From: Malacoraja senta
Lineage: Eukaryota
DNA: 64,000 bases
Assembly: GCA_038087875.1 (NCBI GenBank)
Contig: CM075989.1
Location: forward strand, 1,922,001-1,986,000
Direction of reading: 5' to 3'
Made by a program: the position numbers and the translations under genes. The notes under the pieces were generated by a model. That model saw only the letters and a program-made list of their open reading frames with translations, made no database searches and had not been told where the DNA came from. Shown here piece by piece: positions 4,271-63,536 of the stretch (within the stretch, counting starts at the first letter, position 1; each line of letters starts with the position of its first letter).

Positions 4271-4306
4271 GGGTCTGAAGAAGGGTCTCGACCCGAAACG
4301 TTACCC
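4271..4306 (+). ncRNA. Minimal type I hammerhead ribozyme motif (Penelope-derived repeat)
   Basis: GGGT-CTGAAGA-A-GGGT(CTCG)ACCC-GAAAC-GTT-ACCC: 4-bp stem I, catalytic core boxes, stem II and GUU triplet. Confidence 0.65.
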
Positions 4307-4634
4307 ATTCCTTCTTTCCAGTGATGATGCCTGCTCCGCTGAGTTTGGAGTAGTTTTGGAGGGATATTGACTGAGTGCGGGCAGCTGGGACTGGTGTAGA
4401 TGGGACATGTTGGCTGTTTTGGGCAAGCTGGGCCGAAGGGCCTGTTTCCACACTGTATCACTCTGTCTCTATGATGCTAAATCAGAGCAGGACCTAAACG
4501 GTGAATGGCAGGAGTCCGTGGAGTGTTGTAGAGCAGAGTGATCTAGGAGAGGTAGTGCATAGTGCCGTCACGTCCTCCCTGAATGCTTGTGCTGTGAAAT
4601 CTGGTTTACACTGTAAAGCCAGTAAAAAGAAGAG

Positions 4635-6663
4635 GTTCAGGGATAGTATCAAAGCAAAAGATGATGCATACAAATTAGCCAGAAAAAGCAGCATACCAGA
4701 GGACTGGGAGAAATTCAGAGACCAGCAGAGGAGGACAAAGGGCTTAATTAGGAAAGGGAAAATAGATTATGAAAGAAAACTGGCAGGGAACATAAAAACT
4801 GACTGCAAAAGTTTTTATAGATATGTGAAGAGAAAGAGATTAGTTAAAACAAATGTAGGTCCCTTGCAGTCAGAAACAGGTGAATTGATCATGGGGAACA
4901 AGGATATGGCGGACCAATTGAATAACTACTTTGGTTCCGTCTTCACTAAGGAAGACATAAATAATCTGCCGGAAATAGCAGGGGATCACGGGTCAAAGGA
5001 GATGGAGGAACTGAGTGAAATCCAGGTTAGTCGGGAAGTGGTGTTCGGTAAATTGAATAGATTAAAGGCCGATAAATCACCAGGGCCAGATAGGCTGCAT
5101 CCCAGAGTACTTAAGGAAGTAGCTCCAGAAATAGTGGATGAATTAGGGATAATTTTTCAAAACTCTTTAGATTCTGGAGTAGTTCCTGAGGATTGGAGGG
5201 TAGCAAACGTAACCCCACTTTTTAAGAAGGGAGAGAGAGAGAAAACGGGGAATTACAGACCAGTTAGTCTAACATCGGTAGTGGGGAAACTGCTAGAGTC
5301 AGTTATTAAAGATGGGATAGCAGCACATTTGGAAAGTGGTGAAATCATTGGACAAAGTCAGCATGGATTTACGAAAGGTAAATCATGTCTGACGAATCTT
5401 ATAGAATTTTTTGAGGATGTAACTAGTAGAGTGGATAGGGGAGAACCAGTGGATGTGTTGTATCTGGACTTTCAGAAGGCTTTCGACAAGGTCCCACATA
5501 AGAGATTAGGATACAAACTTAAAGCACACGGTATTGGGGGTTCAGTATTGATGTGGATAGAGAACTGGCTGGCAAACAGGAAGCAAAGAGTAGGAGTAAA
5601 CGGGTCCTTTTCACAATGGCAGGCAGTGACTAGTGGGGTACCGCAAGGCTCAGTGCTGGGACCCCAGCTATTTACAATTTATATTAAAGATCTGGATGAG
5701 GGAATTGAAGGCAACATCTCCAAGTTTGCAGATGACACTAAGCTGGGGGGCAGTGTTAGCTGTGAGGAGGATGCTAGGAGACTGCAAGGTGACTTGGATA
5801 GGCTGGGTGAGTGGGCAAATGTTTGGCAGAAGCAGTATAATGTGGATAAATGTGAGGTTATCCACTTTGGTGGCAAAAACAGGAAAGCAGACTATTATCT
5901 AAATGGTGGCCGATTAGGAAAAGGGGAGATGCAGCGAGACCTGGGTGTCATGGTACACCAGTCATTGAAAGTAGGCATGCAGGTGCAGCAGGCAGTGAAG
6001 AAAGCAAATGGTATGTTAGCTTTCATAGCAAAAGGATTTGAGTATAGGAGCAGGGAGGTTCTACTGCAGTTGTACAGGGTCTTTGTGAGAGCACACCTGG
6101 AGTATTGCGTACAGTTTTGGTCTCCAAATCTGAGGAAGGACATTATAGCCATAGAGGGAGTGCAGAGAAGGTTCACCAGACTGATTCCTGGGATGTCAGG
6201 ACTTTCATATGAAGAAAGACTGGATAGACTTGGCTTATACTCGCTAGAATTTAGGAGATTGAGAGGGGATCTTATAGAAACGTACAAAATTCTTATGGGG
6301 TTGGACAGGCTAGATGCAGGAAGATTGTTCCCGATGTTGGGGAAGTCCAGGACAAGGGGTCACAGCTTAAGGATAAGGGGGAAATCCTTTAAGACCGAGA
6401 GAGAAAAAACTTTTTCACACAGAGAGTGGTGAATCTCTGGAACTCTCTGCCACAGAGGGTAGTTGAGGCCAGTTCATTGGCTATATTTAAGAGGGAGTTA
6501 GATGTGGCCCTTGTGGCTAAAGGGATCAGGGGGTATGGAGAGAAGGCAGGTACGGGATACTGAGTTGGATGATCAGCCATGATCATATTGAATGGCGGTG
6601 CAGGCTCGAAGGGCCGAATGGTCTACTCCTGCACCTATTTTCTATGTATCTATGTATCTATGT
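4635..6663 (+). mobile_element. Second, 5'-truncated copy of the same young CR1 family
   Basis: Near-identical to 1449-3485. RT open to ~6398, where a 1-nt deletion shifts the frame. Same 3' UTR and tail. Confidence 0.95.
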
Positions 6664-7534
6664 GTTAGATTTGTCAGTATGTGACCACACAGTGAATGAC
6701 AGGACTAATGAGTGCTGGTGAGTGGCGGTTAACACATGGATATACAGCGAATGGAGGAATATGTTTCACGTGCAGGAAGAGGAGTTTATCTTGGTATCAT
6801 ATTCAGCATGGACAATGTGGACCAAAGGGCCTGTTTCTGTCCTGTACTGTTCTATGTTCTATGAATCTACAAAAAGAGAAAACTACCATCACTGATTGCG
6901 TACCTTTTGTTGCAAGTAACAATTTGATTTCAGGAATAGCAGCTGTTTCCAGGCCAGCTTTCTCATTCCACGCAGCTTTCACACTGCTCCGATCAATACA
7001 GAATCTAGTGACCATTATTGACTACGGATATATTGGATGCTGGCAAGGCACTTGTTTAGCAGTGGAAATTAAAAAACAAGTGCTGCAAATCCGTCAGGAA
7101 TAAAAGTGGGAAGAAACACACAATTAAAGTCTCACAATGTCATATAAATATAACACTGTTTGAAATTTGAACCACAAAGAAAATTTGACCGTAGCTTTTG
7201 AAAGAGAAGGGGCGGGGCGAATGATTCAGGCCGGTTACTTCATTGGATCACGTTTGAACGGGCCTGATTGAATCCTATCCTCCAATTTCAGATATTGGCC
7301 AGCATTTCTCAGTGATGAGACAGTCCAAAGTGCCGCTTCTCAGATACAAACCAAGAACTGAGAAATATGTCAAATTTAAAATGTTTAATCCGTTTTTAAT
7401 TGTACTGTCCATATTCACAAATATAACTATTTCTAAAGATGTGAGATGTTCCTCACACAGATACATCACTCTCCGAAATGTTGTGTAGATCAACAAATCT
7501 CAAAAATATCACAACAATGCACAAACGTGATAAG

Positions 7535-8440: not shown

Positions 8441-11400
8441 AACCTTACACATAAACCTCAGGGACGTACGCACAGCCTTTACAAAGTTGTACGTCTACCT
8501 TACATGTACACTCAGACATCCCAGACAATCCAGTCACGTACAAAGCTCACAGATGGAGATACAACAAATCTCTCCCACAAGCATGGGGTTATGGGGAGAA
8601 GGCAGGAAATGGGATTAGGAGGCAGAGATCAGCCATGATTGAATGTCGTAGATTTGATTGGCTGAATGGCCTAATTCTACTCCTATAACTTGTGAACTTG
8701 TAAAATAGAACATAGAACAGTATAATAACAGGCCCTTCAACCTACAATGTCTGTGTGGGACATGATGCCAAGACCATCACTTATCTACCTGCATATAACC
8801 ATATCCTCCCACTCCCTGTATATCCATGTGCCTCTCCAAGAGTCTTTGAATGGATCTGTTTCAACCACCACCCCAGACAACATAGTGTTCCTGCACTCAC
8901 CGCCCTTGGTGGAAAAACCTTGCCCTGCTCATCTCTTTTAAATACAAATATACAGACAAAACCTCCTGCACAGACTCAGGAAGCTTTCCCTGACTCACAT
9001 ACACACACAAGTACATAAAATACACACTCATATGTACATAAACCCAAGATCGAGATTACACTCAATGGGTCAGAGATAGCTAGAGACAAGGAATAGGTGA
9101 CATTTTGGCTCACCTTCTTCAGACTGAGAGTCAAGGGGGAGGGAAACTAGAGGCATGAAAAGGTACAGAACAAATCAGAACCAGCACTGATGATGAAGGA
9201 AAGGTGGAGCCCATCATGGTTCATTGTTGATTTCATAGATGTGACAACAAGGGGGATATATGGATGTCAACGTGGAACTGGCAGGATGATTAGAGTTGGG
9301 GAAGAGGCAGAGAGAGAAAGGGGATGCAAGGGTCAATTGAAATTGGAGAAATTAATGTTCATACCGCTGGGGTGTAAGCTGCCCAAGCGAAATATGAGGC
9401 GCTGTTCCTCCAATTCGTGCTGGGCCTCACTCTGACAGTGGAGGAGGCCCAGGACAGAAAGGTCAGTGTGGGAATGGGAAGGGGAATTAAAATGTTTGGC
9501 AACCGGGAGATACAATGTGTGCATACACCAAATACTTGCACATACAATCACATACACAGTCATACATACCACACACACACGCACACACCCATGCACACAC
9601 ATGCATCATACACATGAACCTTAAGATTGTTTGCCACATATACACGCACATGCATGTGTACCTGTTCAGGTAGCACACACGCACACAAATGCAACAGCTG
9701 CTGGAATCATCAGAGCAGATTTGGCAACAGATGCTGTTTTCATTGCATCTGTCATTTAGCAAGGAGCACTGTGGTGAAGTTGAGCAGTGGAACAAGATGT
9801 CAAACACTAATCAGAGACCAACTGAACCAATTAACGAGTCACCTTATTGTTGCGCTGAAAAGCCAGCATTCATCGCAAACAGGTTTCTGCTTTCACAGTG
9901 TGGAGGACCCAGCTTAAAATCACCTTGTGCTAGAATGGTGCAAACACCACTGTAAAACCACCTGTGCAAGATGTGTAGTGCTGAAAGCCAGGAGCAAAGA
10001 CCAAAGTTCTGGGACACATAATGCTGTTGTATCTCAGCGGGACAGGCAGCATCTATGGATAGAAGAAGGATCTCGACCAGAAAAGTCACCCATGCCTTCT
10101 CTCCAGAGATGATGCCTGAGTTACTCCAGCATGTTGTGTCTGTCATCGGTGTAAACCTGTATCTGCAGCTCGTTCCTAAACAAAATGTAGGGTGCGTGGG
10201 AGGGAAATGCACAGGTGAGGTTTTGGGGTAGGATTCAAATTCAGACAGATTGGTAGAGGGGAGAAAGAACAGAGTGCATAAGGTAGACACAAAATGCTGG
10301 AGTAACTCAGCAGGACAGGCAGCTTCTCAGGAGAGAAGGAATGGGTAACGTTTCGGGTCGAGACCCTTCTTCAGTCTCTTATATGTTCATAGAACAAAGG
10401 AACAGGTCCTTCGACCCACAATGTCTGTGCCGAACATGATGCCAAGTTAAATTAATCTGCACATGATCCATATTTGTCCATTCGCTGCATATGCATTTGC
10501 CTATGTAAAAGCCTCGAGCAAAACATAAAGAGCTGGAGGAGCTCAGTGGATCAGGCAGCATCTGTGAAGGGAAGTGTCAAGAGTGAAGAGTGTGTTATAG
10601 TCATGTGTCCCAGATAGAACAATGCCATTCTTACTTGCTGCAGCACAACAGAATATGCAATCATAGTCTGATATGACTAACGAGAGAGAGAGAAAAGAAA
10701 AGCTCCGTGTGTATATAGACCACAACAGTGGTCTGTCAAGGTTTCGGGTCAGGATCCTGATTCGATTATAGTAATAATAATAATAATAATAGATTTTATT
10801 TATATAGCGCTTTTCAGGACTCAAAGTCGCTTTACAATTGAGAGTCAGGAATAAACAAAACAAAATAGAGCAGTAAGACAGAGGGGAGGGGAACATGGGA
10901 CTAAGGGTATGCAGAGGTGAAGAGATGGGTCTTGAGGCGGGACTGGAAGATGGTGAGGGACTCAGAATTTCGGACCGGTTGCGGGAGGGAATTCCAGAGC
11001 CTGGGAGCTGCCCTGGAGAATGCTCTGCCTCCAAAAGTGCAGAGGGGAGAGAAAGCTGGTAAAGAGAGGTGGGGGCAGGACAAAGCATAGCAATTGATTC
11101 TTCAGTGAGAAGAAGGGTCCCGACCCAAAACGTCACCCATTCCTTCTCTCCAGAGATGCTGCCTATCCCGCTGAGTTACTCCAGCATTTTGTGCCGGCCC
11201 CCAGCAAGTGATAGGTGGATACAGATGATGGGGGGCTGAGGTTGTCAGATGGGTGGAGTCAGTGACAAAGGCGAGAGATGAAATAGGGACAAATGGGTGA
11301 CACATGAGGAAGGAAGGGACAAATGTGATAAAAAGGAACTGTAGATGCTGGTTTATACCAAAGATAGGCACAACATGCTGGAGTTACTCAGTGCAGCACA

Positions 11401-11689
11401 TCTGGAGAAAATGGATAGATGATGTCTCGGGTCGGGACACTTCTTCAGACTTCAGTGGGGGTTGGGGGAGGGAGTGGGGAAGGGGGGAAGCAGGAATAGA
11501 GAACAAAATTAGGACAAATGGGAGTCAGCAAACGGTGAGCACAGGCAAGGAGGTTCCATGATAGACCAATTGTTGGCATGAGAAAGGTGTGAGCCCAAGA
11601 GAGATACATAGTTGTCAACTGTGGAACAGGTTAACTGACTCTTGGTGGAAGAAGGGGAGGGGGGGGGAATTGAGAGGGGAGAGGGGAGG

Positions 11690-12215
11690 GAGATGTTTGT
11701 AGAATTTATCCAAAATTGGAGAATTCAACGTTTATACTGCTGGATTTTAAGAAACCCAAGCAAAATATGAGGTGCTGTTCCTCCAATTTGTATGTGGTCT
11801 AACTCTGGAAATGGAGGAGGCCCAGGACAGAAAGGTCAGTATGGGAAGGGCAGTTGAAATGGTTAACAATTGGGAGATCCAGTGGGTCTTGGCGGACCGA
11901 GCATAAGTGTTCAGCGACACTTGGTCTCACCGACGTTCAGGAGGCCACATCGGAAAGAGCGGATGCAGTAGATACGGTTAGAGGAGGTGCATGTGAGCCT
12001 CTGTCTCACCTGGAAGGACTTCTGGGGTCCCTGGATGGAGTCGAGGGAGGGGGTATAAGGACAGGCGTTGCATCTCCTGCGGTTGCAAGGGAAAGTACCT
12101 GGGGAGGGGATGGTTTGGATGGGAACGGATGAGTGAACCAAGGAGTTGCAGAGGGAGTGGTCTCTGCAGAAGGCAGAAAGTGGTGGGGATAGGAAGGTAT
12201 GATCAGTGGTGGGAT
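11690..12215 (-). mobile_element. Penelope-like element fragment (GIY-YIG endonuclease region)
   Basis: Minus ORF 11911-12297 contains PCNRRRCNACP...LTCTSSNRIYCIR...GETK. Confidence 0.8.
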
Positions 12216-12599
12216 GCCGTTGGAGTACTGCACCTGCACGCTGCTTCAGTCTGCCTCCTAGCCTTTGGACCAGCTCCAGATACAAGCATGAGCCCATTCC
12301 TCCACTTCTCTATTAACACACAGCTTCTTAGCTTTGTCTTAATACCTTGTACTAAAACCCCAACATTTACTGAAAATTAGTGAATGTGCAAAATGATTTT
12401 TTTTTAAATAGGCCTAATGGAAAGTGTCCTCTTTATCTGCAGAGGAATGAAAATATGGAGATAAATCACGCTCATATCGTGGCTCCACTATCAATCTCTA
12501 CGCAAAAACCTTGAACCGAGCAACCAGGTTTTCTGTTCATCTGTGTGATCTCAATGCTCCTGCTTCGTAGCATTACAGCTACATGAGGTACTGGAGAGA

Positions 12600-13140: not shown

Positions 13141-13322
13141 ACTCTCAACTCTGGATCCTTGCCTTTGACACCAGCACATCTACCTTGCCGAATAAATGAG
13201 GCAGCATAAGCCAGCCAGCAGCTTGCACTTTCTGCATAGGAGGGAACTTCAGATGCTGGTTTACACTGAAGATAGACACAAAATACTCAGCGGGACAGGC
13301 AGCATCTCTGGAAAGAAGGAAT

Positions 13323-13357
13323 GGGTGACGTTTCGGGTCGAGACCCTTCTTCAGATC
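13323..13357 (-). ncRNA. Minimal hammerhead ribozyme motif, sense to the NTRK3 pre-mRNA
   Basis: Minus strand reads GAT-CTGAAGA-A-GGGTCTCGACCC-GAAAC-GTC-ACCC. Confidence 0.6.
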
Positions 13358-15744
13358 ATTTTACTGATTGTATGCTTCCATTCTCGCCTTCCCCTCAGCG
13401 AACAATGAACCATTCTACATTTCCTTATCATCGTCAGTTTTGACCTGTAGTTTTCAGTCCTTACCCTTCCATATCTCTAGACTCCCTCTCCCCTGACTCT
13501 CAGTCTGAAGAAGGGACTCGACCCAAATCGTCGCCGATTCCTTCTCTTCAGAGATGCTGCCTGACCCGCTGAGTTACTCCAGCATTTTGGTAGAATCGTA
13601 GAGCCTATCGTAAAGCCTAACGTTCACTGTAGCACTGAATCGAGCAGAAGATGCCTGGTGATTCCTCTGGAGCCTTGAGCCCCCCACCCCCCATCTCAGC
13701 TGCAATGGTTTCACTGTTGAAGAGAAGCAACCTTGAAACTAGCTGCCATAAAGTGGCTGCATCTGAAACTCTTCAGCACGTCCTATATTAGCTGAAGTAA
13801 TGCTCTGTTTGACAGCGACATTGCAATGACACCAGGAAATGATCATCAAGAGACTTTAATTGTAACATAAGATTTGAAATAATGTAACGCTTCATGAATT
13901 TTCAGACTTTTTGTAAGTATTCTGTAATTGTCAAAGCCTTGTTACGGTCTTAATCTCTTTTCTGTTGCTCTATCATATTGCATTGGTAGGGAACATGGAA
14001 CTGCATCCTAAAGTGAGCAAGCACCAATAACATGCCCAGCATCCTGTAGTGTTCAGTACAAACTGCACCTGCATGCTGCTTCAGTCTGCCTCTTTGGACC
14101 AGCTCCAGATACAATCATGAGCTCAATCCTCCACCTTCTCTCTTCACACACAGCTTTTTATCTTTGTATTAATACCTTGCAGTAAAACACCAATATTTAC
14201 CAAACATCAGTGGACATGCAGAATTAAATTATTAGAAGCCTAATGGCAAGTTTCCTCTTTATCTCCAGAGGGAAGATGCGCCTCATCGTTAACGTGTAGG
14301 AAGGAACTGCAGATGCTGGTTTACACCGAAGAAAGACACAAAGTGCTGGAGTAACTCAGCAGGACAGGCAGCATCTCTGGAGAAAAAAGAATATGTGATG
14401 TTTTGGGTCAGGACCTTTCTTCAGGTAATCTTACCCATGTTCTCCAGAGATGCTGCCAGACCCGCTGATTCACTCCAGCACTTTATGTCCTTCTTTGTTA
14501 TTTTAAACACAAGTTGTGAGTGTTGTAAGCTTGGCCAGAATTTATTACCCATTCCTAATTGTTCCTGCGCAGAGAGGTTTACTGGAGCATTTCTGAAGAT
14601 TTACTGAAGATGGTTAAATCCATCTACAGTATATTGCTATGGTGACGGAAGGAACTGCAGATGCTGGTTTACACTGAAGATAGACATAAAATGCCGGTGT
14701 AACTCAGCAGGCCAGGCAGCATCTCTGGAGAGAAGGAATGGGTGACATTTCGGGTCGAGACCCTTCTGATTTGGAGTTGTGTATAGGTCAGACTCAGTAA
14801 AGAAAACTGCTTTCTTTATCGAAAGGATATCAACACAATTCAGTCAGTTTGTCTTTATCATTACTGGGATGAACTTTATTCAATAATGTCAGGTTTATTT
14901 CTTTAAGTATCCCAGTAGCCACGATCTCCGCATCACTATCCCAGATTACTGAGGTTTAATTCAGTAAGAGGACCACTGCAGAGATAAAGGATTGACAGCT
15001 GATAGCTAATTAGAGAGACTAAAGACATCAAAGTGGCAGAAGATCGATATTAGGGACGTAGAAAGCTTCTGTTGGATAGACAGAAGATTACGTCAGGGAG
15101 ACAGCAGGAGCAGATACAGAACTCAGTCTACATCTTGGACTCCACCATGTTAATGGCACTGTGGACCAGAAGCAGTGCCGTCGTCACTAGTGCGAAGGAA
15201 TAACAATAACAGCCAGTGCTTGGTCTTTATCAAATCCAAGCCGAGCTCCATTTATACCATTAATAACCTCTCGATGTCTCCATAGTGGGTCACGTTCATC
15301 GTTCTGTTCACAAGGTTGAGACACAGACTGAAAATCGGTTAGCTGGAAGGTGATGAGCAAACTCCGACCCCACAGTGAGGCCAGACTCCCTTTATATCAC
15401 ACAGATGATATAAAGGGCCCTGCTCTCATTGTAGACCTGCCTGAATGTACAGAGCCCACAGTGTTCACAGCACATGTCTGCATAGATGAATCTTGCGCAA
15501 GTGATATTATGGTGCGCAATGAGCGACCTCTGCCCACTTGTGTATTATACATGTGGATGTGCTGGAGCACAATTTCTAAAGGCGGTTCCATAGTTCCAAT
15601 CTCCAATTGTTCCATGATCATGTTTCTGACAACATCCCAATAAGTACCACAGGCGAAGGATGCGTTAAGAGTTTCAACCATCACCTTTATGTTCCAATGA
15701 TTTGTCAGTAACTTCAAATTCTGCTGCCAAGCTGCACACTGGTC

Positions 15745-16324: not shown

Positions 16325-16589
16325 ATCAGGCTGCTGAACCAATCACACTTTCACACCTCCTTTCTGCAAGTGTCCTCATTTCTTTCTTTACCTCATTCTG
16401 AAGATAGATACAAAATGCTGGAGTAACTCCATGTAATCAAGCGGGACAGGCAGCATCTCTGGAGAGAAGGAATGGGTGACGTTGCAGGTTGTGACCCTTC
16501 TTTGACTCTCTACCTCATTCTGTTATTTTGTTACCGATTTTCAATATTTTTTTCACTACAATCTTGAATTGTTCTGCTGTTTTGCCCTC

Positions 16590-17170: not shown

Positions 17171-18734
17171 TCTAATCCCAAAGATAAGACACTAAATGTT
17201 GGAGTAACTAACGTGTCAGGCAGCGTCTCTGGAGAAACGGAATCTCTTTTGTTTGTTTGTTTCTTTTTCTTTTTTTTTTCATTTTGGGTCGAGACCCTTC
17301 TTCAGACTGAGAGTCGGGGGAGAGGGAATCTAGAGGTAGTCCTACCTCAATAACCGGACCATAAACCTCACTTGCACTACGATGGAGTTTTGTTTTCGCA
17401 CTGTCTTGTTTTTGAGAATTTTACATGTGATTTATATATCATTTGTTTTTCTGTGTTGTTTGAGTCCACGTGCCTGTAAAGCAAGACGTTTCATTGTACC
17501 CTGTACCTCACTGGAACTGTGCATCTGATCATAAACTCAACTGCAACTTATTACTACTCTACTCTTTACACTGTGAGCATCTATACACTCATCATAGAGT
17601 CATGGAGCCCCAACTTGCCCACACCTGCCAACATGTCCCACCTCCACTAGTCCCACCTGCCCGAGCTTGACCCATATCCCTCCAATCCTGTCCTATCCAT
17701 GTATGGTAAATGTTTCATAAACGTTGCAATGGTACCTGCCTCAACGACCTCCTTTGGCAGCTCGTTCCATACACCCACCACCCTTTATATGAAAAAGACA
17801 ATATCTGGTGTATATAACAATAACCTAATCTGAACCTGAGTCTTAATCTGAATCGGAACCACCAACCCTAAGATGTGTTAGATCGATATAAATTTAGGTT
17901 CCTGGTTGGATATTGTCAGGAGAATTGAACAGTTTTATCATGAATTACCTTGTATTTCTCAGAATTAAAGTCCATCTGCCATCCTTGCCTAGTTACTTTA
18001 TGTATTTACAATCCTGAAATTAAATAAATTTGCTTAATATGATCTCCATGAATGCAATTAATCTCCATGAGACTGTTTATTTGGCCAGATGGGGTAGCGT
18101 CAACAGCAAATGATGTAATATTTCAAATCTTCCTCTCCTAATAACGTGTGCGTATCTGAACCAACAGTGACCTGAACACTCCACTTCAGAACTCCGCTCG
18201 TCAGAACTTTCCCTAATTGTTATCAACTTGCGTTTCCTATTCCCCAATCAGTTTTCAGCTCAGTTAACTAATTCGCCAATATTTCCATGAACTTTGATTA
18301 CTGCTAAAAGCCTTGCGTGTGGAACATAATTAAACTGATACTGCAAATCCAATTAAATTATAGCCACTAGATATCGCTGATCCATTAATCTAGTTAACTC
18401 TTCCAGAGTTCTTTTACCAGAGATTCCAGGCAGAGCATTTTGCACTCCCAAGCCATGCTAAGTTCATCAATATGTTTCTCACTCCAGATACTGGCTTCAT
18501 TGGTCTATTTCCTCCTCTGTGATATTACTATTCCTGTACACCGTGTGCTCCAAACTTCTCACCAGCTTCTCACCGCTGCCCAAGCTTCCCTGACGTCCAC
18601 GACTTCTAGTTTGAATACCATTCAAATGTACCTTTAACAAATGTCTTTCAGATGTCCAACAATCTGGAGCATTTACTAAAACTTGGCACTGCCTTGAATC
18701 TGCCTTGAATCTTGGAGATTGATCAGGCAGGATC

Positions 18735-19056: not shown

Positions 19057-22000
19057 ACATTCTTTGCCACCTTTATGGAATTGAAGATGAATGTGCCCAA
19101 GCTTGTTGTGGTATATTTTTGAACAAGCAATTAAAAAGGCAAACGAAGAAGGTTTCTGCCCCAAAATGTCACTTATCCATGTCCTCCAGAGATGCTGCTT
19201 GACCCACTGAGTTACTGCAGCATTTTGTCTTCCTTGCAAACTTACAGCATCTGCAGTTCTTTGCATCTCCAATAAGGCAAATGGTATTTTATCCTTTATT
19301 GCGAGGGGACCCAAATATATGAGGTGCTTTGCTCCATTTATATAGGACTTTGGTAGGACTAATTGCGCACTTGTCTGGCTTAAGAAAGGACATCATTATG
19401 GATAGACGAATGCAATGTAGGTTTGCCAGCTTGATTGTGCAATGGTGGGTTTGTTATATGAGAGGACATGCATGCGGGACCGGTATTCTTTTGATTTGAG
19501 AAGAAACATACAAAATTGGCTGGACTGGGCTATTGTTCCTTATTTAGATATCATAAACAAAGGGTCACAGTCTCAAAACTGGTCCCTCAGAACTGAGATG
19601 GGAAGAAATGTCTTCACTCAGGGGTGGTTGCTATTTGGAAGTCTCTACCATAGGGAGTGCTTCATCTCCCTCACTCTTTTTCTCTCTTGCTCACATCTCT
19701 CAGAGCTCCAAGGCTCCTTTGTGGTAAGGTGGCATGTGGGATTACACCAGCAGTTCTTTATTCATTCATGCTTTATAGATGTTGCTGCTGAGCCTGTAGT
19801 TATTGTCAATCCCTATTTTCTTTAGACCCTAAGTCCCAGATATAACCTTTAACTTAGGGCCCTCACTAAAATCCTACACATACGTAACTTTTTTGCATAT
19901 CTTTCATTCATAGTTCTTTATCTCTCCATATCACCATCTATATCTCTCGTTTCCCTTATCCCTAACCAGTCTGAAGAATGGTCTTGACTCGAAACATCAC
20001 CCATTCCTTCTCTCCAGAGATGCTGCCTGTCCCGCTGAGTTACTCCAGCTTTTTGTGTCTGTCCTACACATAGAACTTAGTTTGAGTTGAGTTGAGTTGA
20101 GTTTAGTTTATTGTCACCTGCACCAAGGTACAGTGAAAAGCTCTTGTTACCTATGTGTCCCACCTCCCATCCCCAGCTCTGAGAGTCGAGGAGAACTGCA
20201 CACTTCCACGTAACCCTGAAGTTCATACTCCAGTTCTACGCCTAGAAGTATAGACTTGATGTTTTCCTAACGTGTACATCAAATATAATGAAAGCAAGCA
20301 AAAGAGTTTGGATTCCCTGTTATCACTGGATGAGCTGACAATGGCCACTCGTTCCTTCAAAGCATATAAACCTCCTTGCAATTGCTTCGCATAGATGGTG
20401 GTGTGCATGTAGAATGAGCTGCCAGAGGAGACTATTGAGGCAAGGGCGATGAGGACGTCTGACAAACATATAGGCTAGTACACGGATAGAAATGTTTCAG
20501 AGGGACATGGCCAAATGCAAGCAAATGGTACTAGCTCAGCGATGAAAGCTGATCAGCGTGGACAAGTTAGGTCGAAGGGCTTGTTTCCTTGCAGCATGAT
20601 TCTACCAGTGTCTGGGGCGATTAATCTGACGCACACACACAGCTGGAGTCACAAAAAACTGCAGATGCTGGAATCTTCAGTAAGTGCTGGAGGAACTCAG
20701 TGGGATAGGCAGCATTTGTGGAGGAAATGATGAAGGGTCCTGATCTGAAACATCATCTGTCCATTCCATCCACAGATGCTGCCTGACCCGCTAAGTTCCT
20801 CCAGCACCTTTAGTTGTGACACACACAGAGCTGATCGTTCCTCCATGTTTAGATGGAGTGGAATAGAATGGATAACGGAACCAGGCCATTTGGTTCAAAT
20901 ATATTCCACACAAGCACCCTCCTTCCCATTCATCTACAACCTACACCCATATTAATTCTCCCATCAGAGCCTCATAACAAGGTCTAGCAGAGTTTAAACT
21001 ATTCTGAGCAGGGTTACTGGGCTTGTCGAGAGGGGGCTGGTGGAAAGGCGAATGTACAGTTTGTACACTTGCTGGCTTTGGAAGGGCACCAATGTACATC
21101 CTCCGTGTTACCAGGTGTTCACAGGTACATGAGTGTGTAACTGAAGATAGGGACAAAATGCTGAGTAAGTCAGCAGGACAGGCAGCATCTCTGGAGAGAA
21201 GGAATAGGTTGCAGGTCGAGACCCTTCTTCAGACTAGAGTCATGGGAAAGGGAAACGAGTGATATAGACGGCGATGTAGAGAGAGATATAGAACAAATGA
21301 AGGAAAGATATGCAAAAAAGTAACGATGATAAAGGAAATAGGCCATTGGTAGCTACTTGCTAGAGGAGAACGAGAAGCTGGGTTGGGGAGGGACGGAGAG
21401 AGAGGGAGTGCAGGGGTTACTTGAAGTTAGAAAAATCAATATTCATACCCCTGGGTTGTAAGATGTTCAAGAAGGAACTGCAGATGCTGGAAAATCGGAG
21501 GTAAAATTGCTGAAGAAACTCAGCGGGTGCGGCAGCATCTAGATGCTGCCGCACCCGCTGAGTTTCTCCAGCAATTTTGTCTACCTCTGGGTTGTAAGCT
21601 GCCCAAGCGAAATATGAGGTTGCTGTTCCTCCAAATGGTGTTTAGCCCCACTCTGACAATGGAGGAGGCCTGGGACAGAAAGGTCGGTGTGGGAACGGGA
21701 AGGAGAATTAAAGTGTTTGGCAACCGGGAGATCAGGTAGGTTCAGGTGTGCATTTGGGCGCGTGTAATCTCTCCTCCTTGTCCCACTCCGCCCGTGCCTC
21801 TGGGAATGTGCATCACAGGACCCGGCCAGATGGTCAAGTGGCAGCTCTTCATGCAAGGAACGCTCGGCCAGACGCTGAAACTCTCCTGCATTAATATTCA
21901 TCATTATCACAGGAATGACCCTTGCTGTCCTGGACCTGCTGCAATTACTGTTCACAGGTAGCATCTTCACCTGTAACATCTGAAGGGCAATTAGTCAACA

Positions 22001-23137: not shown

Positions 23138-23172
23138 CAGTCTGAAGAAGGGTCTCGACCTGAAACGTCACC
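23138..23172 (+). ncRNA. Minimal hammerhead ribozyme motif in a 74-bp insertion
   Basis: CAGT-CTGAAGA-AGGGTCTCGACCT-GAAAC-GTC-ACC, flanked by the 12-bp duplication cttccacatcca. Confidence 0.6.
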
Positions 23173-26219: not shown

Positions 26220-26254
26220 CTGCAAGGAGGGGGTGAGGGTGAGAGGGTGTGAGT

Positions 26255-40072: not shown

Positions 40073-40603
40073 CTCCCTGCTTTTCCCTTTGACGTTGCAC
40101 TTGGTGAAAAGTCTTTGCCGCTGAGCAGTAGCTGTTCGATCTTTTGCTAGAGTAACTCAGCGGGTCAAGCAGCATCTGTGGAGGACAGGGATAGGCAATG
40201 TTTTGGGTCTGGAGCCACTGGAGAAGAGAGTTGAGGCTGATGGTGGCAATAACCTACCCTGTGGGGGCAGCAGAGAAATAACTCTACAGTTACTACCATT
40301 CCATTTGTCTTTTTTCTCTATGATTTTGCCCCCCCTGGTCTCTGAGCCTCTCGGCCTCGTTGTTTGTGACCTCCTCACTGCTGTACTAAGCTGGCATCTG
40401 GCCTTTTCAATGCCTGTCGGTCAGGAGGGATGGCAAGGTCAGTGTGGAGCTTAGGGAAGGAGTCACGCAAGCTCACGCCAAGGGCAGCACCAGAGAACCA
40501 TGGGTCAACTCACCCAGAGGCCTGCCTCTCATATTGTGTCACACACAATCCCCCTGCACACACGTATGACCAAGCACAAATACGCATGCATGAACATGCA
40601 TAA

Positions 40604-44688: not shown

Positions 44689-45233
44689 AGGGGCTCACTT
44701 GGGCGACCTAATTGGCGAGTTTAGGAGAGTTTGAAAAAATGAAATGTTGAAGATCTCCTTCGACTATGTAGAAGACCTCCTTCGACCTCCTTTGACTATG
44801 TTGAAGACTAGCTTCAACTAGCTACGACTAACTTCGGGAAAATTGGACACCGAATAGTGGAGAGTGAAGACGACCTCCTTCGACCTCCCTTCGACCTCCC
44901 TTCAACTATGATGAAGACTATCTACGACTAACTTCGACTGCCCTCGATTACCTACGACTAACATGCCGACCTACTATGACCTACAACCACCTACTACGAC
45001 TAAACCTATGAGTAAAAAAAGTATCGATTTTTTCCATGGCGACCTTTTTTTACTCGCGGGCATTTTTCAGCATGTTGAAAAATACGCCGCGACCTAGCTG
45101 AGGCCTCGAGTACGCGGAGACCACTTTCGAGCATGAAGGAGAGTTATAAAGACCTCCTACGACCTCGTGTCGACCATGCTGCAAGTATGAGTCGAGGGTA
45201 AACTCGCCAGAACTCGTGGATTAGGTCGCCCCT
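44689..45233. mobile_element. Harbinger-like MITE with eroded TIRs and internal CGACTA/CGACCT micro-repeats
   Basis: Ends AGGGGCTCACTTGGGCGACCTAAT / ATTAGGTCGCCCCT with TWA flanks. Shares the catgttgaaaa motif with the MITE at 35611-35944. Confidence 0.65.
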
Positions 45234-45355
45234 TAACTCCAAAACGTTGTGTCTATCTTTGGTATAAACCAGCATCTGCAGTTCTTTGTTTCTACATTCA
45301 GTTTAATTTATTGTCATGTGTAACGAGGTACAGTGAAAAGCTTTTGTTGCATGCT

Positions 45356-47511: not shown

Positions 47512-47519
47512 TAAACTAA

Positions 47520-51024: not shown

Positions 51025-51033
51025 CTGACACCA
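51025..51033 (-). promoter_or_regulatory. Primer binding site, tRNA-Leu-like
   Basis: TGGTGTCAG directly after the LTR CA, complementary to the ...CUGACACCA 3' end of tRNA-Leu(CAA/CAG). Only 9 nt match. Confidence 0.7.
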
Positions 51034-51808: not shown

Positions 51809-53714
51809 AAACTAGGCAGTAGAATGCCATGTATAAGGAGACACTGAACTGTGGGTGTCTCTTGATAACAAAAGCAGTCATTAGAGACTGTGAATAATGT
51901 TATAAACTCATTGAGGAGCCATGAGAGAGAGAGCTGACCTTGGAATGAACTAAGGTGAAGTGGGATGTGCAGCCGCTGCCAGTTCTTATCACACACAGTC
52001 ACAATGCAGCGTTTAACATCACTCACCCTTTCCCATTACAGGGCATTGATGCTTTTATCTCAAAATGTCACATCATAACAGGCTGATTCACATTTTGCCA
52101 AAACCCTCATCGTGAGAAATTTGCAATTGACATAATCGACAAAAACAAAATAAACCGCTCGTCTGAATAAGTGAGAAATGATACATCATTCTAACCAGGG
52201 TCAAAACTGCCCCCAACCACCAACAAACCTGCCCCGACCCCAGGCACCTGCGCCCACACCAAACAGATTTTAAATTAGGAATATGTGACATGTCGGGTCA
52301 AGACTCTTCTTCAGACTGAGGGTCTCAGCCCTCACCTATTCACTTTCTCCAGAGCTGCTGCCTAACCTGTTGAGTTATTCTCACATTTTGTGTCTGTCTT
52401 CGGTGTAAACCAGCACCTGCAGTTCTTTCCTACATAGTATTTTAGTTTAGTTTAAATCAGAGATGAACATGAGAAAAGGCCCTTCAGCCCACTGAGTCCA
52501 AGCCGACCATCGATCACCGTTCACACTAGTTCCATGTTATCCCACGTTCTCATCCACTCCCCACACACTAGGGACAAATTACAGATAGCCAATTAAACTA
52601 CAAGGCCAGGATGTGGGAGGAAACCAGAGCACCCGGAGGAAAGCCACGTGGTCACAGTCAGAGCGTGCAAACTACACAGAGAAAGCGCCTGTGGTCAGGA
52701 TCGACCCCGGGTCTCTGGTGCTGTGAGGCAGCAACACTGCCAGTGCCACCAGGTTTCTCCATCCTTTGGACAACCTCCAACGCAGCCCATGCCACACAAT
52801 TCACACAACGTCCTGCAACACCAACAAACATTACAAGCAGTCTAAAGAAGGGTCTCGACCTGAAACATCACCCACTCCTTCTCTCCAGAGATGCTGCCTG
52901 TCCCGCTGAGTTACTCCAGCTTTTTGTGTCTATCTCCCATTTAAACCACCATCTGCAGTTCTTTCCTACATATGATAAGGGAATAACCTTTAGTGCAAGA
53001 TAGAGTCAGCAAAGTCCGATCAAGGACAGCTGAGGGTCACCAATGAGGTAGATAGTAGTTCAGGACCGCTCTCTGTGTCACTCTTCACTGACATTACTCT
53101 CCACTGACACTAATGTTGTTCTGGCCCCAGGGACAAGTCCCTCCATCATCCATACCTTCCCTGTCCCACTTCCAGTTGCCAGTACCTCTACATCGCTGCC
53201 AAAGCTGTCTCAGGAGCTTTGAACATAACTCTTGATGTGAGGCATACATCCTCCCTTAATGCCTGGATTTGAATTTCAAAGCAAAGACTGCATTATGGGC
53301 TCTGTAATGAGCTGTACACAGTAATGCACTCGGCAGATGTGAGTGTTTGTTTTCTGTTGGCTGACATTTTAGAGCCGTTTGTTGGGCAAAATGGGATGTG
53401 GGCGCGATGCCCATGTTTATGAAAGTGGGGACTGCATTTAGAAGTCGCCAGCTGATCAGGTTTTGTACTGTTCATTGCTGAATAATGATTGCCCTGGATA
53501 TTGGTCGTCTTCAGCGAGTACAATGGGAGCCTTTGAACCTAAATACAACCGTGGAAACCAAAGATCCTAGAGCTCCGCTATAGGATCTTTGGTGGAAACC
53601 TGCAGCACAAAAGCTGGCAATTTACCCTAAGCAGAACTAATGAAGCTGCTCTCAATCCCAGCCCCTACCTCCATTATCCGTTCATGCGGTGACATGACTT
53701 TCCTCAAACATCTT

Positions 53715-55050: not shown

Positions 55051-56066
55051 CAGCCTAGGCACCCGGACGAGGCATCGAAGGACGAGAAGCCAAAGCAAAG
55101 AAGTGGAAGCCAAATAACCGAAAGGCTGCGTCGCCTACAAGACAACTATCTGAATGGCAACTCAGCCTAAAAGTCAAATAACGGACATGACGTTGCTGGG
55201 GGGGGGGCGGGATTTGTCAGCGATTGGTCCAAACCCCACCATGAATCTGTATCAACGTTCTTAGTGGAAATCAAATCAAACCAAAACGTGTTGCCTCTTG
55301 GAGAAGGAAGGAGAAAGAAATATAGTGGACATACCTAGTAATGGAACATGTGAGAACTGCGTACTAAAAGATGGTTCTCTTTTACCATAAGAACGGAGAA
55401 ATCTGATAGAGTTGCAAATGGAATCGATAGAAAAGGCACCTGACGTTCAAAATGTTCCAAGAAACATAATTATATTTGATCTCTCCTTTTCACACCTTAC
55501 CCTTCCATATCTCTATGTCTCCCTCTCTCCTGACTCAGTCTGAAGAAGCATCTCAACCCAAAACGTCACCCATCCCCTCCATCCAGAGATGTTGCCAGTC
55601 CCGCTGAGATACTCCGGCATTTTACCTCCAACTTTGGAGTAAACCAGCATCTGCAGATCCTTCCCACATAATCTTGTTTAACTGTCGGTGGCTGGTCCAT
55701 GAAGTGAAGTAAGACTGTGGTGTGCTGCTTCATTAGACTGTAGACTGGTGTAATGAGTTTAAATACATTGTCACACTCAGGATAAGACTGAAGGCTGGAG
55801 GTATGGCAACAACTGGTCTATTTACTGAGCAGGGTCTATTTAAAAAGCACACTTTAGCACGTAGTTTAATGTTTGAATAGAATACTAGAGCAATGGTACA
55901 ACTAGAAACTAGTCTATCGAGTGTTTTTAATCAGCGCACCACACCAGTCTAGTCTATTTAACAACTCTACACCAGTCCAATGGGTCAATGGTTCTTTATT
56001 GTCACGATACAGCACAGTGAAATACATTTGCCGCCGGGCCTGTAATGGCTCCTTGCTCCTGATGTT

Positions 56067-57275: not shown

Positions 57276-57979
57276 CTCAGTCTATAGTATTAAACAACAC
57301 ACACCACACCAGTCTACTGTCTATTTAAATGCTGCATTGCAACAGCCAAATTTATGGAGTCAATTTTTAAATCATTGCTGTTGAACTACTGTACAAGAAA
57401 CCTAACCAACCTACAGGGACACCACTGAATTAAATTAAGGTGATCATAAAATAGTGACTGGAGAAGAGTTACATACAAATCATGGACATTAAATCAATCC
57501 TTGTCACTTTGTGGCGGTGTGATTACTAGGTTCGATAAACGGAAGAATTAGCCAGTCATTTCCATGCTGGCTGGAAATATTGCAGACAATTCTGTTGACA
57601 AACAGCGGGGAAAGAGCGGTCAGTGACAAAAATAGAAAGTTGAGGTTGTAGCTGCGGCTGTACTTTGAGTAAGGAGGTGTCCACATCAGTGGGCTGTCTG
57701 TCTGCCTGTCTGTCTGTCTGTCTGTCTGCCTGCTGTGGCCCCTACCAATCTTCCCCTTCTCGGTGGAACATTGAACTCCATTTGGATGCTTTTCACAAAG
57801 TGCTGGAGTAACTCAGCGGGACAGGCAGCATCTCTGGAGAGAGCAATGGGAGATATTTCGGGTCGAGAACCTTCATCAGACAGATTCTTGAAGCATTGTG
57901 GCTGATGTGAAGGGCAGGAGATGGTTTAAGATTAACAATGAACCCTCTCCTCTCTTTCTTGTTGGTACATAATTAATTG

Positions 57980-58305: not shown

Positions 58306-60654
58306 GTGGCTGGGAGAGTCAGAGATTATGTTTGCAACAGTCCTGTCCCAACTCGGCCTTCTTCTTCCAATGCTTAGTTTAGTTTAGAGAACAGACATTT
58401 CAGAAATGAACACAGTCTCCAGTCACCAACATCTTCTACAACTGTAAGATAACAGCGGTAATTTATATGCTCAGTACCCTGACTGATGAAGGCCAATGTG
58501 CTGAAAGACTCCTCGACCACTCTAGCTGCCTGTGATGCCACATGAAAGGAACTATGATACCTGCACTCCTAGATCCCTCTGCACCATATCACATCCCAGA
58601 GCACTGCGACGGTCTTCCCCCGGGTAAACTTTGCAAAATACAACACCTTGCACCTTAGTTCAGTTTAGTTCAGTGATACAGCGTGGGAACAGGGCCTTCG
58701 GACCACGGAAGTCCACGCCGACCAGCGATCCCCGCGCATCAACACTATCCTACACACACTAGGGATAACTTACACACACACCAAGCCAATTAACTTACAA
58801 ACCCGTATGTCTTTGGAGTGTGGGAGGAAACAGAAGATCTCGGAGAAAACCCACGCGGTCACGGGGAGAACGTGCAAACTTCGTACAGACAGCACCCGTA
58901 TTTGGGATCAAGCCCGGGTCTCCGGCGCTGCAAGCGCTGTAAGGCAGCAACTCTACCGCTGCGCCACCGTGGCACTTATCTGCATTAAACTCCATTAACC
59001 ATTCCTCAGCCAACTTGCCCAACGGATTAAGATCCTGATGTAGACACAAAATGCTGGAGTAACTCAACGGGACAGGCAGCATCGCTGGAGAGAAAGATAG
59101 ATGACTCGAAACGTCATCCATTCCTTCTCTCCAGACATGCTGCCTGTCCCACTGGGTTACTCCAGCATTTTGTGTCCATCTTCAGTTTCAACTAGCATCT
59201 GCAGTTCCTTCCCACACATAAGATCCTGATGTAACTGATAACCATGTTTGCTATCTGCAACACCACCCACTTTAGTGTCATTTGCAAAGTGGATCCATGT
59301 CACACACAACACTGCAGTTTTCAATGGGTTGTATTGTTTGCTGTTGTTCACACAGATTGAGACAGACACTGCCTTCTTTACTTAATACAATTTGCGGAAT
59401 CTGTCCTCGATTGACATTCCAGTATCATGTGGGGATATCAAGGCAGACAGCACCTCGCACTGAAATAATATAATTCAGAACAAACTCGCCTCTATGCACA
59501 TAGACTTAAAAACAATTCTGTTCAATGTTATTTTACTCAATTCAGTAGGTTCTGTGTTTTTAAATAAAAAGTTATTGGAACTGCAGGACAAGTAATTTAG
59601 GACGGAGATGAGGAGAAGTGCCTTCTCTCAGAGGGTGGCGATACCTGTAGATCTCTCTGAAGCTGCAGAGTGCCACGGAATATATTTCAGAAGGAGATTG
59701 ATACAATTCTAGATGCAAACGGCATCAGGGATGGAGGGGAGAGAGAATATTGTACTGCAGTGGTTTAATCGGCCAAGTTTCCCCTGAAAGGCAGAGGTGT
59801 ACAAAATCATGAGAGGAATAGATCGAGTAGGGGAATTGAGAAGCAGAGGGCATAGGTTAAAGGTGAGGGGCAAAAGATTTAAAAATAATCTGAGGGGTAA
59901 CTTTTTCACACAAAGGGTGGTCGGTGTATGGAACGATCTGCCAGAGGAGGTAGTTGAGGCTGGGACTATCCTAACATTTAAGAAACATTTAGACAGGTAC
60001 ATGGATAGGACAGGTTTGGAGGGATATGGGCCAAGCACAGGCAGGTGGGACTAGTGTAGATGGGACATGTTGGCAAGTTGGGCCAAAGGGCCCAACGCTG
60101 TAAGACTCCATGACCCTATGACTCTGTAACATCATTCAAAGGGCCGAATGGCCTGCTCCATCTGCTTCAGTGTAATCCACGGCATTTTGCTCATTCCAAA
60201 GCAGAAACTTTCAGTCAATGCTGACATTGGGAGTCGATGTGTGAATCGAACGCTGTTCCACGTACACTGTTCTAAGGAGCTTCTGAATAATGGCTGCACC
60301 AGAAGCCAGCCTTCATTCAGCTAATGGCTCGGCTCGGCACACTATGGCCACTGTGGCGCAGCGGTAGCGTTGTTGTCTTACAGCGCTTGCAGTGCTGGAG
60401 ACCCGGGTTCAATCCTGACTACGGGTGCTGTCGGCGCGGAGTTTGTACGTTCTCCCCGTGGCCGCGTGGGTATTCTCCGAGATCCTCGGTTTGCTCCCAC
60501 ACTCCAAAGATGTACAGGTTTGTAGGTTAATCAGCTTGGTATAAATGTAAATTGTCCCTAGTGTGTGTAGGGTAGTGTTGGTGTGCGGGGATCGCTGGTT
60601 GGTTGGGACTCGGTGGGCTGAAGGGCCTGATTCCGTGCTGTATCTCCAAACTAA

Positions 60655-61285: not shown

Positions 61286-61481
61286 TGAACAGGTAAACTG
61301 TTACGTGCAGGAACACAGTGATGCAGGAGCAGGACTGTGCTGCTGCCAGTAGTTTGCTGAGGATTCAGTGTCATCTCTGACTAATTCATGGCAGTTTGTT
61401 TAGTTTAGTTTAAAGATACAGTGCATAAACAGGCCTTTCCGCTGACCGAGTCCACGCTGTCCAGCGATCCCTGCACGCCAA

Positions 61482-62045
61482 TGGGCCTGTCCCACGTAGG
61501 CGATTTTTTCGGCAATTGCCGACGCCTGTCATAGTCGTAGCAGGTTGCTGAAAAAACGGCGACTCACCCCCCTACGACAATGTCTACAGCAACCTACCTC
61601 CTAGTCGATGTCAAGCGACAACCAGCGACCCATTAGGACGTCCACCTACGACCACACCTACGACAACCTACGTCCATCTGCGACAAGTTACGGCAAGGTA
61701 AGACAATTCAGTCGCCGGTACCTGTCGCCGGTTGACGTAGGTAGTCGCCAATGGAATTCACCAAAGTCAAGACCGGCGGCAACCTACGTCATCCTGGCGA
61801 CAACCTACGACAGCACCTACGTCAGGAGAAGTCAAACTACGCTCATTGGCGTCAAAACCACTGTTGCCGACTGTCGCTGAAAAGTTTTGAACATTTCAAA
61901 ATCCAGCGGCGACCAGAAAAACGCTACGATTCTTTGGGCGACTGAGGAGACGACTCACGACCATACAGGCGACACCCCGGCAACCGTGTGGCGACAGCCT
62001 AATCACCTGCAGTTGCCTTAAAATCGCCTAAGTGGGACAAGGGCA
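61482..62045. mobile_element. PIF/Harbinger-type MITE inserted in an HE1 SINE
   Basis: TIRs TGGGCCTGTCCCACGTAGGCGATTTT / AAAATCGCCTAAGTGGGACAAGGGCA at the TAA position of the SINE. Contains CGAC-rich internal repeats. Confidence 0.8.
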
Positions 62046-63536
62046 TTACACTATCCTACACACACGAGGGACAATTTAAAATGTTACCAGGCCAGTTAGG
62101 ATTCATCAGGATCTCTCCAGTTTCAGGAAAATACCAACATCATCCCCCCTTTACCCCCCTCTCTTCCCTGTGCCCCACCTGCATGTGCACCCATTCTTCC
62201 ACTATCCCACTCCACTTTCATCTTCCCCTTTCCCCTTCGACCTACATCCCTTCCTCCTGCTTCACAATTCTCACTTCTTCTTTCTTTATCAACCTTTTGT
62301 CTTTTTCCCTTCTCTGGTTTTACTCCACCCATCTGGCAATCAAACCCTGCTCTCCTGCATCCACTGTCGTCATTCATGTATCCCATCTTCCCCAGCCAAC
62401 AATGGGCCAATATAGACTCCATCCTTCCTGAGGTCACCTGCTGCCGGCCCTATGTTGTTCTGGCCTTCTCCATCAGTCTGACAAAGGGTTCTGACCCGAA
62501 AGGTCACCTCCAGGGATGCTGCCTGACTCACTGAGTTACTCCATCAGTCTGTGTCTATCCGCCTATTACTTGCCAGGGTTTGTTCTGCCCCCATCTATTT
62601 TCCAGCTATCATTCCCTCTCACTGGTATCAGTCCGAAGAAGAGTCTCCACCAAGAATGTCACCTGCCCATGTTCTCCAGAGATGCTGCCTGACCTTCTGA
62701 GCTACTCCAGCATTTTGTGTGTGTTTTTGTGGATCAGGCCCTTGGGATTGAATGAAGACTCCTTCATAGGTTGTATAGTGACATAGGCTTGCTGATGAGG
62801 AGTAAACCTTCCCCACTATATTAGTGTGCCACGATGCGATCACCAGTATCTGACACTTCCAGAGCCATGCCAGATATCATGTTCCATACAGAACGACAGC
62901 TCCCTCAGGTCAGAGGGTGGTGAATCTGTGGAATTCTTTGCCACAGAAGGCTGTGGAGGCCAGGTCCGTGGATAGATTTAAGGCAGACATAGATAGATTC
63001 TTGATTAGTATGGGTCAGAGGTTATGTGGAGAAGGCAGGAGAGTGGGGTTAGGAGGGAAAGATAGATCAGTCATGATTGAATGGCGCAGTAGACTTGATG
63101 GGCCCAATGGCCTGATTCTACTCCTATTCTTAGGACCTTATGACCTCAGCACGAGGCTTCTAACAGCCACTAATCTCTGACATGGAGTGCTTGCATTAGC
63201 ACCAACTGGTTCAGTTTCCTGGGGTGACTGCACGAAACCACCCAAGGAATGGTGGTGCAACGGTGGAGCTGCTGCCTTACAGTGCCAGAGACCCGGGTTC
63301 AATACTGACTACGGGTGCTGTCCATACGGCGTTTGTACATGTAACCGTGAGGGTTTTCTCCGGGTGCTCCGGTTTCCTCACACACTCCGAAGACGTGCAG
63401 GTTTGTAGGTTAATTGATTTTGCTAAAAACTTGTAAATTGTCGCTAGTGTGTGTGGATAGTGGCGGTGGATGGGGTGATCGCTGGTCAACATGGGCTCGT
63501 TGGGCTGAAGGGTCAGTTACTCTGCTGTATCTCTCA

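Follow-up and report, generated by a model that had tools for sequence, protein, structure and literature searches.

The most abundant short repeat in a 64,000-nucleotide stretch of the Malacoraja senta genome (assembly GCA_038087875.1, contig CM075989.1, positions 1,922,001 to 1,986,000; hereafter the window) is, judged by its sequence, the end module or pseudo-long terminal repeat (pLTR) of Neptune-type Penelope-like elements (PLEs), and it contains a minimal type I hammerhead ribozyme motif. Its short copies are probably dead-end run-off complementary DNAs (cDNAs) of the RNA of these elements, made by a reverse transcriptase (RT) that would have started about 95 or 128 nt into the RNA.

How common is the repeat? 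Positions are counted from hammerhead C3 = 0, with the predicted cleavage between +27 and +28. The 28-nt motif reported in the initial annotation of the window matches exactly once; nine matches appear at up to three mismatches, and none in shuffled sequence. A profile search finds 51 fragments (25 on the plus and 26 on the minus strand; 4,839 bp, or 7.6% of the window) with a mean identity of 89% to their own consensus. The core from C3 to H17 is spanned by 26 of them, close to the 'roughly 25' copies first annotated, and all 16 example coordinates given at that time hold a copy. Self-match depth rises to 42, compared to about 24 for the runner-up, a tRNA-SINE-like element (SINE, short interspersed element), which bears out the initial claim that this is the most abundant short repeat present. 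At the gathering score Rfam returned no match for the whole window; for 13200-13620 it gave no hammerhead at E <= 10. The repeat is very abundant in public sequencing runs: 163,148 contigs of one run align to a 241-nt stretch, a figure that is not a copy number; the matches listed in a run search with this stretch of the window include seven coded organisms and no RNA run. No pile-up of ends was listed for four public runs, which consist of contigs only and are uninformative on transcription start, cleavage or expression. Viral contigs gave neither a match to the DNA pattern nor relatives of the proteins.

The consensus holds CUGANGA, GAAA and UH in type I order, with all core letters kept in 10 of the 26 spanning copies. 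An extra A follows A9 in 34/34 window copies, and the ACGU palindrome that would form stem III (15.2-16.2) is present in the consensus and invariant in 11/11 aligned motifs. Stem II, initially written with 5 bp, is corrected to 4 bp with a 4-nt loop, because 5 bp would leave a loop of 2 nt. Relatives were metagenome loci fetched by RT similarity alone, namely the best 80 of at least 315 confirmed. In 24 of these the endonuclease end is followed by 300 nt of sequence or more, 5 others being too short. Seven of the 24 have a strict minimal hammerhead 94-132 nt past the end; none occurs on the antisense strand of these 24 or in shuffles, and the 24 ends are not independent families. A covariance model, trained on four of these ends, finds a match within 600 nt at 16 of the 24; this search covered 57 of the 80 loci. 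Comparison of 11 distinct motifs shows two-sided changes in 7 of 10 pairs (3/4 in stem II, 4/4 in stem I), and the covariation score is 0.727 against 0.200 for shuffled and at most 0.115 for slid alignments. Stem II includes G10.1-C11.1, and 97.7% of cells are paired, a percentage that is partly by construction since the motifs were chosen for pattern fit; their invariant extra A and ACGU palindrome agree with the published consensus. A model built from 10 foreign motifs, with the window sequence left out, recovers 19 window copies at E <= 0.05. Outside CpG sites the core shows 16 mismatches in 308 cells, whereas base-matched tail positions would predict 31, and tightening the edge margins does not alter this; such conservation fits a core under constraint in the source elements. 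Covariation and leave-out model thus agree with the initial annotation, which had read here a minimal type I hammerhead in a PLE pLTR, with an extra A and palindromic ACGU as stem III, and had looked to stem II covariation and core conservation as its check.

Some motifs stand out individually. In one relative (L024:323) the long open reading frame (ORF) begins at the AUG within the hammerhead core, as has been reported for the anole element; in other relatives it begins 180-520 nt downstream. L066, L069 and L070 represent a PLE family with a longer stem III palindrome (ACCGGU) and a textbook TATA-initiator pair just upstream. The top-scoring hammerhead of the window, at 4262-4309, has an intact core and, through a short GAAGGGTC duplication in its flank, a 4-bp stem I; it lies inside the 3' end of a long interspersed element (LINE).

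To which element does the module belong? The broken frames of the element at 26253-29002 align to proteins with RT and GIY-YIG domains, the RT showing a helix-region DKG-type motif; the closest proteins to the PLE frames come from Chiloscyllium, Mobula and Hypanus (66-69%). A Cys-rich linker, CNRRRCNAC, is found at 11911-12309, in frameshifted form in 26253-29002, and is kept in the relatives. This linker is the published criterion for the Neptune clade (PMC3846280, PMC8557442), and by this criterion alone the sequence points to Neptune-type PLEs. Pfam gave no match for seven single-frame fragments taken as PLE pieces; the fragment at 62003-62431 among them may be noncoding. At five places in the window the module stands downstream of an endonuclease end and an untranslated region (UTR). 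The UTRs ahead of it differ greatly in length and sequence, all converge at AGT before C3, and at least five endonuclease-to-UTR types end in the same module. The window also holds the arrangement by which PLEs are recognized, pLTRs in tandem or inverted order with an optional 30-40-nt tail on one end. Tail and inversion are signatures of PLE insertion and support the earlier proposal that a PLE protein mobilized the repeat. The tail had also been placed at the 3' end of the Penelope element at 26255-29000; two end modules do lie there (element 26253-29002), but deletions of 15 and 12 nt have disrupted their hammerheads.

Where do the copies begin? Among the 41 fragments that have no aligned UTR, 24 start at -9 to +4. 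Two solo copies bounded by duplications begin near -2 to -4. Of the five listed joints between opposite strands in public contigs (122 further joints exist), three have -4/-3 on one side, and the inverted copy of relative L012 likewise starts just within the core. The initiator consensus is YYANWYY, and 12 of 13 UTR-bearing copies match it with the A at -3. In L066/L069/L070 the same TCAGT is preceded at a distance of 30-31 nt by a TATA box, and a second related family carries TATATAAA at -39/-37; altogether TATAWA is present at -41 to -30 in 2 of 12 related families, against 0.2 expected (p = 0.016). From the cluster of 5' ends, the initiator A and the TATA boxes of the relatives we infer a candidate start of PLE transcription at -3. 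Several points weigh against this assignment. Three of the clustered ends (11451, 62472, 62627) have other UTR upstream, which reduces the count to 21/38, and the uniform null used for the clustering is naive. The initiator consensus carries little information in pyrimidine-rich DNA. The window of the TATA test was picked after the data were seen, 10 of the 12 related families lack TATAWA in it, and a TATA-like patch, however weak, is seen in only 6 of the 13 UTR copies in the window. The window contains no element that is full-length or 5'-complete. Moreover, in Penelope of D. virilis an intron reaches helix I with its 3' end, and the start site lies 46 nt upstream of this intron (PMC2377424, PMC4209133); therefore the start does not lie at the ribozyme in every PLE.

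The 3' ends fall into two groups about 33 nt apart, with 27 of 51 at +79 to +104 and 19 at +118 to +128; five are shorter. The initial statement that all copies are followed by the same tail of ~100 nt consequently needs correction: among its examples, the copy at 4271 stops at +70, that at 23138 has lost 20 nt and that at 17285 is split by an A-rich insert. The two groups are the PLE 'tail', whose ends match the two internal RT start sites that define it in vitro in a PLE of the anole (PMC11167929). Ten head-to-head pairs (20 fragments) are found against 0.8 expected, with a maximum of 5 in 5,000 random placements. Exactly one arm carries the tail in nine of the ten (P about 0.008), and both arms in none. 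Private variants are common to both arms in 19 of 78 cases, compared to 6% with shuffled partners; two pairs contribute 13 of the 19. Target-site duplications scoring 9 or more flank 3 of 11 pairs and 4 of 20 solo copies over a background of 2.3%, and are 11-16 nt long in some copies and pairs. Given the one-sided tails, the shared arm variants and these duplications, each pair stems from one event, and some of the short copies, at least, were already short when inserted. Against the run-off reading, 16 of 20 solo copies lack a clear duplication.

How could such copies arise? PLE transcription would start at the initiator-like A three bases before C3, making the ribozyme the first ~31 nt of the RNA; this place at the very 5' end would explain why stem I has only 2 bp. 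RT priming at the first pLTR would yield inserts of 100-130 nt, and priming at the second (3') pLTR the longer copies with UTR and ORF. If both nicked target strands were primed, one per RT start site, head-to-head pairs would result. The short copies, with neither an upstream promoter nor the downstream RNA to which the RT binds, would spread no further. Retroviral strong-stop DNA is a ready comparison for run-off cDNAs this short. In free RNA the ribozyme is predicted to be switched off by a competing hairpin, and any cleavage would require a dimer or the PLE protein. The anole PLE provides an in vitro precedent for a protein-assisted ribozyme and for two internal RT start sites (PMC11167929). 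A fuller scheme we put forward only tentatively, at somewhat less than even chances: the Neptune transcript would start at the base of the hammerhead, the RT would start 100-130 nt on, strong-stop-like cDNAs made in mass would integrate singly or as head-to-head pairs and would have become one of the top repeats in elasmobranch genomes, the pairs would record priming on both strands from the two start sites at once, and the 5' hairpin would act as a switch that prevents self-cleavage of the capped RNA until the PLE protein binds. The possibility that an ORF begins within the module, which is the case in the anole element, was rejected, the window having only a short frame there.

Would the ribozyme cleave? 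Core, stem II and stem III palindrome are all intact in 5 of the 26 spanning copies and broken in 21. G12 lies in a CpG and is lost in 13/37 copies, as other CpG sites are. Stem I of the window family has 2 bp, compared to 3-4 bp in the relatives. In folding predictions stem II of the consensus forms at P < 0.01, and a competing helix pairs G10.1 with position 1.4 at P 0.91; stem II of the relatives forms at P 0.57-1.0 in 8/9. Two modules folded with the intervening UTR gave no dimer helix (P = 0), nearest-neighbor folding being weak in this setting. Published minimal hammerheads cleave poorly even as dimers (PMC4209133), and the anole PLE ribozyme is inactive without protein (PMC11167929). 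Given the 5/26 intact copies, the 2-bp stem I and the hairpin predicted over the core, most copies are probably incapable of cleavage. The initial description of the family as ribozyme-bearing thus applies to its source elements and not to the short copies. Copies oriented like the host kinase gene of the window are not depleted (26 minus, 25 plus; 3 of 5 intact cores on the minus strand), which fits inactive monomers, numbers being small.

Could the short copies instead constitute a genuine non-autonomous family, comparable to a SINE or a retrozyme, that is transcribed independently and relies on the PLE protein to be copied again, as the initial annotation held? Their very high density, the sharp 5' boundary they have in common and the target-site duplications around solo copies of 100 nt would all be expected of such a family. 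A DPE-like (downstream promoter element) ACGT at +27 to +30 from the inferred start might serve as an internal promoter (compare PMC2377424), and PLE-derived non-autonomous retrozymes, one chondrichthyan included, have been published (bioRxiv 10.64898/2026.07.22.740005). The short copies, however, contain no sequence exclusive to them, and both of the variants, at +31 and at +59, are found in UTR-bearing as well as short copies. Tandem arrays of the short unit are absent, same-strand neighbors sharing it being separated by UTR DNA, and the anole PLE template, in vitro and for this one PLE, needed RNA 3' of the RT starts that the short copies lack (PMC11167929). We regard such a family as unlikely. 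In this one window the claim of self-propagation falls on the lack of private regions or subfamily variants and of an upstream promoter-like region, and on the module being shared by at least five endonuclease-UTR types.

The sharp 5' boundary could also be produced in ordinary 5'-truncated PLE 3' ends, if the RT stalled or switched template at the edge of a structured module, or if a 3' splice site (pyrimidine tract and CAG) lay there. Truncation is the rule for PLEs (PMC8557442), and we give this origin a small, though slightly better, chance than the previous one. A stable hairpin is predicted at +2 to +39, but stalls would be expected at its 3' side and not beyond. A pyrimidine tract followed by CAG precedes U2.1 in most UTR copies, and the D. 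virilis intron ends at helix I (PMC4209133); against splicing, the short copies are not preceded by an exon they have in common, the AG itself is part of many starts (11451, 23138, 31808, 52833), and most related families have no AG at that place. A splice acceptor at the 5' boundary is therefore kept as a rival and not favored. Self-cleavage, finally, might release a short RNA that is then copied. The low rate of core mismatches noted above would agree with this, as would the few pair arms that start at +34 to +47 and the opposite-strand joints at +26 to +44 in public contigs. Cleavage after GUC, however, would place 5' ends at +28, and the main cluster lies 30 nt upstream and includes the whole core; moreover, hammerhead mutants left insertion of the anole PLE unchanged (PMC11167929). 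We consider this explanation highly improbable.

How do these run-off copies, as we take them to be, compare with known systems? Minimal type I hammerheads in PLE pLTRs were described by Cervera and de la Pena in 2014 (PMC4209133), and the link between the two has been in print since. The window motif shares with theirs the core boxes, an extra nucleotide between 9 and 10.1, G10.1-C11.1 and the palindromic 15.2-16.2, as well as the pLTR location (fish Neptune, Poseidon and Xena), the dispersal mostly as single copies tied to truncated PLEs, and opposite-strand pairs. It differs in its 2-bp stem I (4-5 bp in Schistosoma motifs, 3-4 bp in the relatives examined here) and 4-bp stem II, and in its density of 26 core-spanning copies in 64 kb. 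Cartilaginous fish appear neither in the main passages nor in supplement file 2 of that study; its supplementary alignment could include a shark motif. Poseidon_Ac of Anolis carolinensis (Frangieh et al. 2024, PMC11167929) likewise has two insertion ends ~100-130 nt past the hammerhead and a 30-40-nt tail. Its extension of both target strands and its protein-dependent ribozyme in vitro would have their counterparts in the head-to-head pairs and the predicted-off ribozyme of the window. Poseidon_Ac belongs to the Poseidon clade and its ORF starts inside the hammerhead, whereas the window elements are Neptune-type with no long ORF from the module. As in Adineta vaga Penelope and PLEs in general (PMC3846280, PMC8557442), there are head-to-head inverted pLTRs, a one-sided tail, TATA- or initiator-like pLTR motifs and target-site duplications of about 8-10 nt or more; the A. 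vaga elements bear ORFs and are low-copy, in contrast to window insertions that are mostly 100-230 nt long without an ORF. Non-LTR retrozymes (PMC7229834; bioRxiv 10.64898/2026.07.22.740005) are also noncoding, related to PLE pLTRs and equipped with a type I hammerhead. They consist of tandem units each with an intact hammerhead, unlike the dispersed, single or inverted and mostly broken copies of the window. The two tandem cases considered as retrozyme candidates, 26253-26626 and 62472-62720, were rejected as both have broken cores.

Hammerheads in PLE pLTRs, single-copy dispersal, inverted pLTRs and one-sided tails are thus already published, and as a ribozyme the motif is one further lineage; the interest of the repeat is mechanistic. 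The part of the literature covered holds no description of this cartilaginous-fish family, which the supplements of bioRxiv 10.64898/2026.07.22.740005 may list for the one chondrichthyan sampled there, and no report of solo pLTRs or of run-off inserts that arise from a start site at the hammerhead. For the study of PLE transposition, the repeat provides a very large natural record of sharp-ended insertion products. If the 5' boundary is the transcription start, the origin of many solitary minimal hammerheads in animal genomes would be explained. Most of these would need no activity, and it would be unwise to tally them among ribozymes or to treat them as a SINE family.

Copies of the end module and associated PLE pieces in the window (positions as in the window; "both" denotes arms on either strand).
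Feature	Position	Strand
Decayed Neptune-type PLE, partial tandem: endonuclease C-terminal piece, RT, GIY-YIG, 3' UTR, two end modules	26253..29002	-
First end module of PLE 26253-29002; GUC site deleted; short 3' end (+91)	26520..26626	-
Second end module of PLE 26253-29002; stem II deleted; tail present (+127)	26253..26411	-
Intact-core copy; stem I 4 bp through chance flank; top match of leave-out model	4273..4345	+
Endonuclease C-terminus, UTR, decayed module	9039..9511	-
Head-to-head pair; tail on + arm only	10013..10178	both
Solo copy; core intact; 5' end at -3	10280..10377	-
Fragment 3' of core (+36..+87)	10523..10574	-
Copy, 5' end about -5; G12 lost	11102..11193	+
Linker and GIY-YIG fragment, divergent UTR, tailed module	11333..12225	-
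Head-to-head arrangement with UTR stretch between; - arm with the only exact core of the window (13327-13354) and tail; + arm short	13237..13589	both
Head-to-head pair; tail on - arm only	14295..14508	both
Solo copy, +4..+124	14647..14767	-
Solo short copy within 16-nt target-site duplication (1 mismatch)	16400..16502	-
Copy interrupted by A-rich insert (two matches)	17178..17338	-
Solo copy, tailed	19145..19262	+
UTR and module, short end; inside stretch used for run searches	19883..20063	+
Head-to-head pair; tail on - arm only	20657..20806	both
Endonuclease end, UTR and module, interrupted by perfect head-to-head pair (21471-21593) with 11-nt target-site duplication	21139..21746	both
Solo copy, core intact; 5' end -2 to -4; 12-nt target-site duplication	23138..23217	+
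Head-to-head pair; tail on + arm only	24525..24719	both
Decayed head-to-head pair; neither arm tailed	29142..29257	both
Endonuclease C-terminus, short UTR, module	30755..31071	+
Head-to-head pair; arm starts -5 and -3; 7 private variants common to arms; tail on + arm	31711..31936	both
Solo copy, divergent subfamily; core intact; tailed; 16-nt duplication nearby	32208..32332	-
29-nt insert (+67..+95); 14-nt target-site duplication (1 mismatch)	33870..33898	-
UTR end and module	34561..34690	+
Head-to-head pair; tail on - arm only	37401..37612	both
Decayed fragment	40145..40209	-
Solo copy, +2..+128	41647..41773	+
Two fragments (+2..+38, +71..+122), possibly a single interrupted copy	44621..45287	+
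Head-to-head pair; tail on + arm only	52277..52434	both
Near-consensus solo copy, tailed; G5 lost	52833..52970	+
UTR end and tailed module	55500..55668	+
Solo copy; N7 = U variant	57794..57886	-
Head-to-head pair, whole pair inside 15-nt target-site duplication; tail on + arm	59041..59216	both
Two decayed tandem modules, spacing 155 nt, UTR-like DNA upstream of each	62472..62720	+

The perfect head-to-head pair at 21471-21593 sits inside the endonuclease 3' end of another PLE copy, which suggests that the element inserted into its own ORF-pLTR junction. On the minus strand, at 26046-26219 and about 31300-31420, lie two exons of a receptor kinase of the Trk family, with NT-3 and BDNF/NT-3 receptors as best matches; their presence suggests a largely intronic window. 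Between the tail end of PLE 26253-29002 and the splice acceptor of the first exon there are ~30 nt. Other elements are present as well. A 1,334-codon stop-free frame on the minus strand (47041-51045) encodes protease, RT, RNase H and integrase domains of an LTR retrotransposon and is flanked by similar repeats near 42300-43200 and 46700-47400. Two LINE RT frames, 1662-3380 and 4498-6432, are near-identical, young-looking and close together. The second commonest short repeat, derived from a tRNA and SINE-like, occurs at 24 places (e.g. 29265-29380) and resembles the HE1 family. Long simple tandem repeats at 7437-8638, 38432-39248 and 40455-41089 contain spurious open frames.

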